Source: Candidatus Bathyarchaeota archaeon
Lineage (GTDB): Archaea > Thermoproteota > Bathyarchaeia > 40CM-2-53-6
Direction of reading: 5' to 3'
NCBI GenBank assembly: GCA_963706285.1
Contig: CAVPLU010000004.1
Coordinates: 128,001-192,000, forward strand
DNA: 64,000 bases
Part shown: piece by piece, positions 22,414 through 63,342 of the stretch
Layout of the letters: each line of letters starts with the position of its first letter
Numbering within the stretch: position 1 is the stretch's first letter
Notes under the pieces: model-generated
What the model was told of the DNA's origin: nothing
The model's database searches: none
What the model saw: only the letters and a program-made list of their open reading frames with translations
Program-made: the position numbers and the translations under genes

Positions 22414-23873
22414 AAACTATCAGTATAGACCCGGTCACGAGACTTGAAGGACACGGGAAGATTGAGATCTTTCTCAACGACGCAGGAAATGTTGAGAACG
22501 CCTACTTCCAAGTTCCTGAACTGAGGGGATTTGAGAAGTTCTGCGAAGGCAGACCAGTTGAAGAAATGCCTGACATCACAAGCAGAATCTGCGGCGTCTG
22601 TCCCTGAAGCCCATCATCTAGCTGCCACGAAAGCGCTGGATGCGGTCTTTCACGTCGACCCCCCATCTCCCGCCAAGAAGCTAAGAGAACTACTGTACAG
22701 CGCCTTCTACGTGGCCGATCACACAACTCACTTCTACATACTCGCCGGACCAGACTTTGTCATGGGCCCCAATGCTCCCAAAGCGGAGCGAAACATACTC
22801 GGCGTAATAGGAAAGGTCGGACTTGATGTCGGCTCTTCCGTGATTAAACATCGTTCAGACGCACTTGATGTTGTCGGCATGATCGGTGGAAGGAGAATTC
22901 ATCCAACATGCGGAGTGCCCGGCGGAGTCAGCAGACCCATCACTGAAGAGGAAAGAGCAAAGATCGAGGAAATCGCAAAATCAGAGATCGAGTTCGCAAA
23001 GTTCACCTTGAAGCTCTTCGAAGATGTCGTCTTAGAAGAACAAGGACTATGTGAATCTCATAAAGAGCGACTTCTACACGACCCCCACATACTACATGGG
23101 CCTCGTCGACGACCAGAACCGAGTCAACTTCTACGACGGCAAAGTCAGAGTGGTTGACCCTGAAGGAAAAGAGTTCGCAAAGTACAATCCCGCCGAATAT
23201 CAGCAACATCTCGCCGAGCATGTCGAACCGTGGACATACCTGAAGTATCCGTACCTGAAGAAAGTCGGATGGAAAGGACTCGTCGGCGGAAAAGACAGCG
23301 GCGTATACAGAGCCACACCGCTCTCACGACTCAACGCGGCCGACGGAATGGCAACACCTCTCGCACAAGTCGAATACAAGAAAATGTATGAGACGTCTAG
23401 GCGGCAAACCCATTCACGCAACACTCGCAACGCACTGGGCTCGTCTGATAGAGCTCCTCTACGCCGCCGAGCGGATGCATGAACTTAGCCGAGATCCAGA
23501 AATCACAAGCCAGAACGTTCGCACGATTCCCACCGCAACCCCAGACGAAGGCGTTGGAATTGTTGAAGCTCCCCGAGGAACATTGACACATCACTACAAG
23601 ACTGACGAGAAGGGACTCGTGAAGAATGTCAACCTGATCGTGGGCACAACAAACAATCACGCCGCGATAAGCATGTCCATCAAACAGGCAGCACAGGGAC
23701 TGATCAAGAACGGCCAAGTCTCGGAAGGTCTGCTGAACATGGTGGAGATGGCTTTCAGAGCATACGACCCATGCTACGGCTGCGCCACACACACTCTTCC
23801 AGGACAGATGCCTCTCGAGGTCAACATCTACAACAAGGAAAGAGCACTACTGCGAAGACTACGAAATCCATAG
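22410..23873 (+). CDS. mvhA: MvhA (three indels)
   Basis: [29 protein letters not shown] across four ORF pieces. Confidence 0.9.
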
Positions 23874-26910: not shown

Positions 26911-27271
26911 TCAGTAGTCACCGAATCTAAGATAGAATTTGACACCGCTATCAAATATCGCTTTTGCCCACAATTCCACACATTGCACCGTTCTTTGCTA
27001 TTTCGACCAGAATCGTAAGGCGTTAGACACGGAGAATATGCAAGACTGAACGAAGCCAGCGGCATTGGAAGCGACCACTTCTCGTAATCTCTCGCCTTCG
27101 ACTGGGAAGGTCTGGTATGATTAGCAGAATGCCAGTGCAGAGTGCGTTCCTTCAAGATTTGACACTACTGCAAATTCGAAATCAGACTTGCTGGCGAGAA
27201 CGTTTCTAACCCCGCTGGCACGCACTGATGTACGATGATGTTTGATGCTTTGATGGGATGTGGATGCGTCA

Positions 27272-27380
27272 TGGTGGACCGGGCGGGATTTGAACCCGCG
27301 ACCTTCCGCACATTGGAACTGGAGTTTGCCAAGCGGACGATCTTCGGCCCTCGAGGCATACCAGACTGATCTACCGGCCC
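27272..27380 (-). tRNA. tRNA-Ala(GGC) with two introns: 21/22 (27343-27357) and 37/38 (27311-27326)
   Basis: Spliced product GGGCCGG..GATC/GATC..TCCGC-TTGGCAT-GCGGA..TTCAAAT..CCGGTCC-ACCA with G3:U70; relaxed BHB at both introns. Confidence 0.92.
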
Positions 27381-27572
27381 ACGATAATCGCCTAACATCA
27401 ACGATGTACGACCAATCATCATTTGAAGGGTCGTCCGTCTATGCGTCAGCGACGTGTGAGTTGGGTCTGGCCTCGTTAAATGGATTTTGGAAGCCCGAGA
27501 TTATCAGGGAGATTGAGTGATTGGGAAAGTCTTAATTGAAAGCCGAAAGGCCTACAGTCCCATCCCAGCTGT

Positions 27573-27736
27573 GCCGAGGTAGAACCTTCGGGTTCCTTGA
27601 CAGCTCAGCCTGGGAGAGCACCCGATGCCTGTGAGCAGGTGAGGCTGAAGACCGGGCTGACGGCCAGACGGCTGGCCCAATCGAGTGTTCAAAACCGTCG
27701 GGCCAACCGACGGGGAAAATCACTCCCTCGGCACCA
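27573..27736 (+). tRNA. tRNA-Phe(GAA) with four introns: 27581-27601, 27625-27643, 27660-27680, 27694-27719
   Basis: Removing four BHB-delimited inserts gives a 77-nt cloverleaf GCCGAGGTAGCTCAGCCTGGGAGAGCACCCGGCTGAAGACCGGGCTGTCGAGTGTTCAAATCACTCCCTCGGCACCA. Confidence 0.92.
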
Positions 27737-27816
27737 ACTACCCTACTTCCTCGAAGTTGACTCCTAGTCTGCAAAAGATAGATCAATGCCTGCAATAGCA
27801 CTGGAAGCAATCTAGG

Positions 27817-28586
27817 GTGCAAAGAGTGCGCGTCGGTTTCGTACAGATGAATCCACGACTACTTCGAGTAGAGGAGAACGTTGACAAAGCGCTCCGCTTT
27901 CTCGAGAGAAACAAAGCGGACCTAATGGTTCTCCCAGAACTCTTCAACACTGGATACAACTTCTCCAACCGTCGAGAGATCGAGAAGGTGGCCGAAAGGA
28001 TCCCTACCGGCTACACGATGTCAGAAGCTTCTGGACCTGTCGCGTAGTCGAAAGATGACGATCGTTGCAGGCATAGCGGAAAGAAGAGGAACAAGTCTAT
28101 ACAATTCTGCAATTGTAGCCCGTAACGGACGGGCGTCAACCTACCGTAAGGTTCACCTCTTCTTCAGGGAGAAGAAATTCTTCAAACCAGGAAACGAGTT
28201 CAAAGTCTTCGGCGATCTCGGAGTCATGATCTGTTTCGACTGGTTCTTTCCCGAGTCCGCTCGGACTCTGATGCTTAAAGGTGCAAAGATAATTGCTCAC
28301 CCATCGAATCTTGTACTGCCTTTCTGTCCCCATGCGATGAAGACGAGATGTATTGAGAACCGCGTCTTCGCAGTGACCGCGGACAGGATCGGCCGTGAAC
28401 AGCGAACTGAAGTACATAGGACGCTCGGAGATAGTTGACACGAAAGGGCGCATCTTGTACTGTGCTTCATCAAATCGAGAAGAGGTGAGGGTTCGTGAGA
28501 TCGATCTTCGAGAAGCTGCCAACAAGAGGATGACCTCCGTGAACGATATCATTCAGGACAGGAGGCCGGAAGTCTACGTGCGCTAG
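27817..28586 (+). CDS. Carbon-nitrogen hydrolase, nitrilase superfamily (two indels)
   Basis: VLPELF, YRKVHL, MICFDWFFPE catalytic E-K-C motifs. Confidence 0.9.
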
Positions 28587-31645: not shown

Positions 31646-34075
<2,430 letters not shown>

Positions 34076-34291: not shown

Positions 34292-34426
34292 GCGGCCGTA
34301 GTCTAGCCTGGTCTAGGACGGGAACGCGCGCATCTGCGCGCCGCAAGCCTGCCAACGCCGGGCGGACCGCTTCTGACCTACAGCCGTAGGGAAGACACCC
34401 GGGTTCAAATCCCGGCGGCCGCACCA
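34292..34426 (+). tRNA. tRNA-Gly(GCC) with three introns: 29/30 (34324-34346), 37/38 (34355-34367), 45/46 (34376-34396)
   Basis: Spliced 78-nt cloverleaf with GGAGC-CTGCCAC-GCTTC anticodon arm and encoded CCA; BHB at each junction. Confidence 0.92.
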
Positions 34427-63213: not shown

Positions 63214-63342
63214 GGGCCCGTAGCTCAGCCTGGACAGCACCCCCGATGCGCAAGTCAGGGTGTTCAAAGCATCGGCCCTCTATGCCTACAACAGAGCGAG
63301 GCAAGCCGGGGGCCGTGGGTTCGAATCCCACCGGGCCCGCCA
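63214..63342 (+). tRNA. tRNA-Arg(UCU) with two introns: 22/23 (63238-63267) and 37/38 (63283-63303)
   Basis: Spliced 78-nt cloverleaf with A20 and G73; BHB central helices GGAC/GTTC and CCTC/GAGG; C at position 33. Confidence 0.88.

Follow-up and report, generated by a model that had tools for sequence, protein, structure and literature searches.

Short introns at bulge-helix-bulge (BHB) motifs interrupt the tRNA-Phe(GAA) gene considered here, which lies in a 64,000-nt stretch of DNA (the window; positions 128,001 to 192,000 of contig CAVPLU010000004.1, assembly GCA_963706285.1) from a metagenome-assembled genome (MAG) of the Bathyarchaeia. The closest described systems are found in the Thermoproteales (Pyrobaculum, Thermofilum, and others), where, according to the accessible portions of the literature, a gene may carry several short BHB introns at noncanonical sites and a broad-specificity (alpha-beta)2 endonuclease is present. 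A 2014 review and the 2021 tRNAscan-SE 2.0 paper, in their accessible text, give three introns as the maximum for an archaeal tRNA gene, the figure that the initial annotation of our locus had also given. The richest Thermoproteales genome in these sources, that of Pyrobaculum calidifontis, has 71 introns in 46 genes, or ∼1.5 per gene.

Higher loads are reported for Asgard archaea. Introns occur in 92 to 95% of the tRNA genes of three Asgard genomes in the accessible part of a 2024 paper (PMC11291895), and the available text of a preprint of October 2026 (10.64898/2026.10.13.758758) puts three Asgard families at 2.20 intervening sequences per gene, with a maximum of five in any one, versus 1.54 for P. 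calidifontis. The same preprint, as far as its accessible text goes, regards the route by which BHB introns enter tRNA genes as still open. Outside the archaea, nuclear tRNAs of the red alga Cyanidioschyzon merolae have BHB-like motifs at D-arm, anticodon, and T-loop sites, with up to three introns whose stepwise removal was demonstrated by reverse transcription-PCR (PMC3728597, accessible text). As a eukaryote, with some circularly permuted genes and fewer introns per gene, C. merolae is the more distant parallel.

We predict that the window contains a functional tRNA-Phe(GAA) gene, apparently the sole one in this Bathyarchaeia archaeon, and that four short introns of archaeal type divide it at sites 8/9, 30/31, 46/47, and 59/60 (estimated probability, ∼0.92), and we infer that tRNA-Phe is transcribed, cleaved, ligated, and aminoacylated from it. 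Thermoproteales and Bathyarchaeia belong to the same phylum in the GTDB sense. The two share short, multiple, noncanonical introns, but unlike the Thermoproteales, with their reported limit of three per gene, this genome has four or five introns in four genes, an average load of ∼2.3, and interruptions in every one of the 33 genes resolved (a lower bound obtained with our own program rather than a curated census). Further, Pyrobaculum and Thermofilum are cultured hyperthermophiles, while the Bathyarchaeia lineage is not known outside MAGs and metagenomes. The resemblance to Asgard archaea (nearly all tRNA genes interrupted at BHB motifs, ∼2.2 introns per gene, up to five in one, many in the D and T arms and missed by annotators, in the accessible parts of PMC11291895 and preprint 10.64898/2026.10.13.758758) crosses a phylum boundary and rests on intron counts and the arms affected.

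Structure and conservation of the tRNA-Phe(GAA) gene

The gene occupies window positions 27573 to 27736 (+) and comprises 77 nt of exon and 87 nt of intron, divided into five exons and four introns. The exon lengths proposed in the initial annotation (8, 23, 16, 13, and 17 nt, plus 87 nt of intron) were reproduced exactly, and recomputation of each junction returned the same helices, bulges, and hairpins. In the standard geometry, which was applied here, the central helix joins the last four exon bases ahead of the 5′ bulge to the last four intron bases ahead of the 3′ bulge, and cleavage falls after the second base of each 3-nt bulge; flanking helices are designated h (outer, from the exon) and h′ (inner hairpin, from the intron).

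27573-27580 (+): exon 1, 8 nt, tRNA positions 1-8; invariant in 7/7 aligned genes
27581-27601 (+): intron 1, 21 nt, site 8/9; central helix CGAG/CTTG, 4/4 pairs; bulges GT/A and AC/A (slash, cut); h′ 5 bp, h 2 bp
27602-27624 (+): exon 2, 23 nt, positions 9-30; invariant in 7/7 aligned genes
27625-27643 (+): intron 2, 19 nt, site 30/31; central helix CACC/GGTG, 4/4 pairs; bulges CG/A and AG/G; h′ 3 bp, h 2 bp
27644-27659 (+): exon 3, 16 nt, positions 31-46; carries the anticodon GAA
27660-27680 (+): intron 3, 21 nt, site 46/47; central helix GGGC/GCCC, 4/4 pairs; bulges TG/A and AA/T; h′ 5 bp, outer helix absent (HBh′ form)
27681-27693 (+): exon 4, 13 nt, positions 47-59
27694-27719 (+): intron 4, 26 nt, site 59/60; relaxed BHB; central helix TTCA/GGAA, 3/4 pairs; bulges AA/A and AA/T; h′ 7 bp, h formed by the 5-bp T stem
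27720-27736 (+): exon 5, 17 nt, positions 60-73 plus encoded CCA (27734-27736)
27525-27537 (+): promoter-like element, purine-rich stretch plus TCTTAATT, ∼39 nt upstream of the mature 5′ end

All four introns have bulges of 3 nt and at least one flanking helix (h or h′), and none uses site 37/38; all are noncanonical, as had been claimed. The cut site of intron 4 may also be written as 58/59 (it lies in a run of A residues), with no change in the spliced product. Cutting after the second bulge base was said to give a perfect cloverleaf, and it does: ARAGORN reads the in silico product as a 77-nt tRNA-Phe(gaa) with all stems paired, and our own finder recorded no cloverleaf violations. The identity set of tRNA-Phe, from work on yeast and archaea, includes the anticodon GAA, discriminator A73, and G20; the spliced product has the GAA anticodon and A73, and its D loop has a G just ahead of A21. 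Two other kinds of interrupted gene were ruled out. All five exons lie in order on a single strand in a span of 164 nt, unlike those of a split or permuted tRNA gene, and the inserts of 19 to 26 nt compare with hundreds of nucleotides for the core of a group I or II ribozyme, no family of which reached the Rfam gathering score in the window or matched 27200-27900 at an E value of ≤10.

Comparison with relatives indicates that it is structure, not sequence, that is conserved among orthologues of the inserts. A DNA search covered 41 genomes of the order, this one (G000) and 40 relatives, and found the full-length gene at 83 to 96% identity in five congeners (G001, G008, G009, G005, and G006). 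Four other genomes of the genus, 88 to 95% complete, gave no match to the gene in this search, which recovered no intron-poor tRNA-Phe from any genome of the genus. Our SPLITS-like finder, which lists BHB candidates and then seeks a chain of exons satisfying the cloverleaf, recovered the same four introns in all five congeneric loci; among these the exons are invariant and the differences lie mainly in the hairpin loops.

For covariation, seven genes were aligned (G000, the five congeners, and G019 from a sister genus). The four-BHB structure pairs 94.6% of the cells in this alignment, compared with 31 to 45% when the 3′ partner is slid by one to three columns, and none of 500 shuffles matched the real alignment on any of five covariation measures. 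Compensatory change on both sides was seen in 11 of 45 pairs, seven in intron hairpins (one in intron 1, two in intron 2, and four in intron 4) and four in the T stem, where the exon 4 changes of G005 and G019 are compensated in exon 5. Changes in the helices of intron 3 are one-sided (G-C/G-U), and the A·G mismatch in the central helix of intron 4 is retained in all seven genes.

The sequence upstream of the gene is also conserved. The block gaaagtcttaatt is kept in five of six aligned sequences of the genus, with one base changed in the sixth, and comparable A/T boxes are found at an equal distance in more distant loci. From the known layout of archaeal promoters, the element may correspond to a B recognition element (BRE) and TATA box. 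A gene for a Rieske protein neighbors the tRNA-Phe gene, and the genes downstream are common to relatives. About 200 nt upstream, in the opposite orientation, is a tRNA-Ala(GGC) gene (window 27275-27380 [−]) with introns of 15 and 16 nt, which scores 49 bits with RF00005 over the whole genome yet was missed by cmscan at the gathering score on the window.

Standard finders miss the tRNA-Phe gene, as the initial annotation suspected they would and as was seen here for ARAGORN and Infernal/Rfam. ARAGORN with default settings found no tRNA gene in the whole window, and no Rfam family matched the window at the gathering score; at an E value of ≤10, nine weak matches fell within 27200-27900, none of them of a tRNA family on the gene. 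RF00005 gave 23 matches over the genome at an E value of ≤1, 16 of them above the cutoff and none at this locus. By these searches the genome would seem to lack tRNA-Phe, as had also been foreseen. The intron option of ARAGORN makes 26 calls genome-wide, three of them labeled Phe, and by inspection and our solver these are a tRNA-Val(GAC) with a canonical 13-nt intron, a tRNA-Thr(GGT) with discriminator U73, and a duplicate of that Thr gene on contig C20.

Our finder, run twice over the whole 89.2%-complete assembly, gave no second tRNA-Phe; among the hits that ARAGORN accepted, this locus alone carried a GAA anticodon. A blastn-short search of the genome with the spliced product matched only its own exons and a tRNA-Tyr(GTA) gene at the end of contig C1. 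The locus is likely the sole tRNA-Phe gene of the genome. The assembly is 7.5% contaminated; parts of C6 and C4 recur on contigs C1 and C20 with 93 to 97% identity, tRNA genes included, which fits that figure and a second strain in the bin.

Proposed splicing of the precursor and alternative explanations

We propose the following route to the mature tRNA. A single precursor of ∼175 nt would be transcribed from the conserved upstream A/T-rich box, and each exon-intron junction would fold locally into a BHB. A two-subunit endonuclease of crenarchaeal type would then cut after the second base of each 3-nt bulge, RtcB would ligate the five exons, and the acceptor, D, and anticodon stems would form only after excision. 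The four BHB stretches (gene positions 1-32, 45-74, 82-106, and 111-153) do not overlap, and all can therefore form at once. Precursor bases 3-6, 25-28, and 41-44 pair with intron sequence and belong later to the acceptor, D, and anticodon stems; because three of the BHBs borrow these stem bases, the complete cloverleaf would appear only postexcision. The predicted precursor fold is far more stable than those of shuffled sequences (z = −4.64), none of 200 shuffles reaching its stability. The minimum-free-energy fold includes both the acceptor and T stems, along with the hairpins of introns 1, 3, and 4, that of intron 3 in a shifted register.

The genome encodes candidates for both enzymes. Two EndA-family genes match PF01974 at 87.9 and 44.8 bits, and both proteins have N and C domains. 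The 186-amino-acid (alpha) protein is closest to the crenarchaeal tRNA-splicing endonuclease chains 2cv8_A, 3p1z_B, 3ajv_B, and 2zyz_B (E values of 4e-40 to 4e-31) and its alignment is ungapped across the GKP.GI.KPK stretch near the N terminus of 2cv8_A, while 1a79_A, from the homotetrameric enzyme of M. jannaschii, aligns only from residue 50. The alpha protein retains the VY, DHAP, and RK motifs in the alignment; the second protein (beta, 174 amino acids) is more divergent and was judged by eye. In enzymes of this type, catalytic Tyr, His, and Lys residues occur in alpha and are lost in beta, and a specific loop is linked to broad specificity; their assignment in the present proteins is putative. 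This two-gene layout, with one putatively catalytic and one putatively structural subunit, is that of a predicted crenarchaeal-type (alpha-beta)2 splicing endonuclease. The accessible text of PMC5829648 and of the 2014 review names (alpha-beta)2 and epsilon2 endonucleases as the only types that cut noncanonical introns. RtcB is present at G000:C4:105729-107043 and matches in two overlapping frames. Two window genes, one resembling a succinate dehydrogenase/fumarate reductase flavoprotein (31646-33341) and one a hydrogenase large subunit (22531-23873; identities by eye), likewise lie in two or three overlapping frames, which may reflect either assembly indels or broken genes.

Several points weigh against a working, BHB-spliced gene. 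The minimum-free-energy fold does not contain the four 4-bp central helices. The conserved A·G mismatch of intron 4 and the missing outer helix of intron 3 would both depend on an enzyme of broad specificity, and the double-frame match of RtcB may mark either an assembly indel or a broken gene. An intron-poor tRNA-Phe could also sit in the part that is missing from an 89%-complete, 7.5%-contaminated assembly.

The alternative that best survives, itself highly improbable, is that the gene is real but not every insert leaves via a BHB, the 59/60 or 46/47 intron, for example, being cut elsewhere, in a forced order, or inefficiently. Intron 4 has three of four central pairs in all seven genes, intron 3 has no outer pair (o1 = 0), and the run of A residues at positions 57-59 leaves the cut site of intron 4 ambiguous. 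However, the four motifs do not overlap and each can form in the primary transcript, and introns at 59/60 in which TTCR pairs with YGAA are found again in the Gln, Glu, and initiator tRNA genes of the same genome. Both the hBH and HBh′ forms are listed as accepted substrates of (alpha-beta)2 enzymes in the accessible text of the 2014 review and PMC5829648.

Still less probable is a decaying pseudogene, a former tRNA-Phe gene that gathered insertions while a working copy lies in the unassembled 11%. The completeness of 89.2% leaves room for such a copy, and several protein genes of the window, as well as RtcB, look frameshifted. Decay is nevertheless difficult to reconcile with exons that are invariant or compensated across seven genomes while the intron loops drift, or with the preservation of all four BHBs and of the upstream box. 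The DNA search gave no intron-poor tRNA-Phe in any genome of the genus, and every resolved tRNA gene of this genome (33 of 33) is likewise interrupted. An artefact of assembly or binning, in which chimeric sequence happens to resemble an interrupted tRNA, is scarcely credible: the bin is contaminated, partly duplicated, and shows apparent frameshifts in the window, but the same architecture occurs in five congeners and nine solved metagenome contigs, divergence is graded in other genera, and the gene lies inside a 478-kb contig with conserved downstream neighbors. A working gene spliced at four BHBs remains our preferred reading.

Intron load across the order and the genome

Intron number in tRNA-Phe varies among relatives. 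The gene was solved in 17 genomes of the order, with seven further loci unsolved, as follows.

Five introns: G019 (sister genus; L007 1504-1693 [−]), the four sites of G000 plus a 25-nt D-loop intron
Four introns: G000, G001, G008, G009, G005, G006, and G038
Three introns: G031, G039, G035, and G025
Two introns: G032, G012, G023, G037, and G034

Six sites are in use among these genomes (8/9, D-loop, 30/31, 37/38, 46/47, and 59/60), and the four-intron set of G038 is a different one (8/9, D-loop, 37/38, and 59/60). Where a relative lacks an intron, the flanking exons are contiguous, with the sequence that splicing predicts. The 8/9 intron, present in all seven aligned genes, is absent from G032, G031, G012, G023, G037, G039, and G025, in which exons 1 and 2 are contiguous; the 30/31 and 46/47 introns were found in 13 and 12, respectively, of the 17 solved genomes. 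Metagenomes were scanned with a pattern consisting of exon 2 followed by the first intron base, which by construction excludes genes with a D-loop intron, and 80 of at least 120 matching stretches were analyzed. Sixty were solved (22 with one intron, 16 with two, 13 with three, and nine with four), 17 were unsolved, and three were cut by contig ends. All nine four-intron loci use the four sites of G000.

Rather than standing apart, the tRNA-Phe gene exemplifies a condition that extends across the genome and the lineage. All 33 distinct tRNA genes resolved in G000 are interrupted, by 75 introns in total (2.3 per gene), with the following numbers of genes per intron count.

No introns: 0 genes
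One intron: 8 genes
Two introns: 13 genes
Three introns: 8 genes
Four introns: 3 genes (Phe, Gln-TTG, and Gln-CTG)
Five introns: 1 gene (Pro-GGG)

The genes were resolved as follows. A medium-stringency pass over both strands gave 49 nonoverlapping hits; ARAGORN agreed on the anticodon for 30, and the other 19 were dropped. Removal of three duplicates left 27, to which were added five genes solved under the loose BHB rule in regions marked by RF00005 or ARAGORN, and tRNA-Gln(CTG). Under the loosest rule, which accepts three of four central pairs or else any two flanking pairs, false cloverleaves of five to seven long introns arise almost anywhere, and results from it were kept only in short premarked regions with an ARAGORN pass or the backing of an orthologue. 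Two parses were corrected, one by eye and the other by targeted runs: those returned by the solver for C4:220526-220635 and C16:56049-56190 were wrong, the first being a tRNA-Thr(TGT) with two introns. With the genome read backwards as a control, the finder gave 10 hits, all with four to six mostly long introns and none with a CCA tail, and ARAGORN accepted one of the 10. The tRNA-Phe call exceeds chance, as judged from this control and from relatives with fewer introns, in which the exon sequence is the same but unbroken.

The finder passes over G000 detected no gene for Asp, Asn, His, Trp, or several other isoacceptors, and three tRNA-like loci had no solution, including C4:424466-424581 and the Tyr gene truncated where C1 ends. 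An archaeon needs ∼46 tRNA genes. RF00005 at an E value of ≤1e-5 finds 4 to 27 per genome in the 41 genomes of the order, 4 to 16 in this family, and 13 in G000, and these low counts fit an order-wide condition of interrupted tRNA genes.

Two Gln genes match the intron number of tRNA-Phe. tRNA-Gln(TTG) (G000:C4:264371-264532 [+]) has four introns, and the same four were recovered in seven of nine loci examined in the genus, the other two giving no solution; tRNA-Gln(CTG) (G000:C12:127304-127465 [+]), also with four, was solved only under the loose rule. The last 17 nt of tRNA-Gln(TTG), together with ∼47 nt of downstream flank, are repeated at C3:122606-122669 (−) and C18:10510-10573 (−) with 92 to 97% identity, and these repeats could be attachment-site remnants of an integrated element.

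Other resolved genes include two in the window, tRNA-Gly(GCC) at 34292-34423 (+) with introns of 23, 13, and 21 nt and tRNA-Arg(TCT) at 63214-63339 (+) with introns of 30 and 21 nt, which the intron mode of ARAGORN mislabels as Ala(cgc) and Leu(caa), respectively. The initiator tRNA-Met (G000:C4:386124-386265 [−]) has three introns, one of them 30 nt long, lying in the 3′ strand of the acceptor stem (∼71/72), with a 9-bp hairpin that closes it. Three class II genes, Ser(GCT) (C4:5383-5492 [−]), Leu(TAA) (C6:70347-70499 [−]), and Leu(CAA) (C13:93369-93517 [−]), have no encoded CCA; it is encoded in Leu(GAG) and Leu(CAG) and in all of the resolved class I genes but one, the CAT gene at C4:348195-348319, whose tail is TCA.

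Possible intron gain and wider significance

The tRNA-Pro(GGG) gene of G000 (C3:165487-165727 [−]; L021/L023) has five introns of 32, 64, 20, 19, and 30 nt, each with four of four central pairs. The Pro(GGG) genes of six congeners (G004, G001, G002, G009, G007, and G005) have the three 3′ introns only, and their first 23 nt are contiguous; three of them (G004, G001, and G002) share the mature sequence of G000 exactly, and the other three (G009, G007, and G005) depart from it by one or two bases of the D arm. Because these congeners lack the two 5′ introns while their mature sequences are identical or nearly so, both introns look like recent gains in G000. In G015, an intron of 25 nt occupies the first of these extra sites.

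The source of such introns was sought within the genome. An all-versus-all comparison of 58 introns gave only two pairs at an E value of ≤0.01, one of them between near-identical Ala genes, and thus no evidence that introns were recently copied from one gene to another. Replacement of the 5′ end by a mobile element should have left a displaced 5′ part of tRNA-Pro(GGG) without introns, and none was found in the genome. In the G001 bin, G001:C238:118-267 (L175) holds a copy, 88% identical, of Pro(GGG) exons 1 to 3 with both extra introns, followed by unrelated sequence; the bin also holds the complete three-intron gene on another contig, and the C238 copy could be a fragment, a strain mixture, or a rearrangement.

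The suggestion in the initial annotation that tRNA-Phe might be a record-level fragmented tRNA does not stand: the same genome has the five-intron Pro(GGG) and two four-intron Gln genes, G019 has a five-intron tRNA-Phe, and genes with more than three introns had already entered the literature, the accessible text of preprint 10.64898/2026.10.13.758758 reporting up to five in one Asgard gene. Four introns in one tRNA gene are neither a record nor unprecedented, but the lineage appears to add a new case that is just as extreme. A ceiling of three introns, as given in the accessible text of the 2014 review and the 2021 tRNAscan-SE 2.0 paper, fails within the Thermoproteota in the broad sense. Bathyarchaeia are not mentioned in the accessible text of the Asgard preprint, and no report on the tRNA intron load of Bathyarchaeia or Bathyarchaeota was found in the openly readable literature, supplementary tables aside.

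We lean, if only slightly, toward the view that nearly all tRNA genes are broken up in this order of Bathyarchaeia, which would be the third archaeal lineage to have reached that state independently, after the Thermoproteales and two Asgard classes, with a load equal to the highest reported (∼2.3 introns per gene, with a maximum of five). Intron gain may be continuing, because tRNA-Pro(GGG) has three introns in six congeners and five in G000 and because tRNA-Phe has two to five introns at six sites in 17 genomes.

If this is correct, tRNA counts used in grading Bathyarchaeia MAGs would be systematically too low; because RF00005 finds so few of the genes needed, isotypes such as Phe look absent and tRNA-based quality grades are biased against these MAGs. 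The junctions at 8/9, 13/14, and 71/72 and the conserved mismatched 59/60 helix are ready substrates with which to probe the limits of (alpha-beta)2 endonucleases. The presence or absence of introns among close relatives provides direct material on how BHB introns enter tRNA genes, most clearly in the extra pair of Pro(GGG) and in the variable set of tRNA-Phe, and these abundant soil and sediment archaea would then offer a natural system in which to catch BHB intron insertion in progress.

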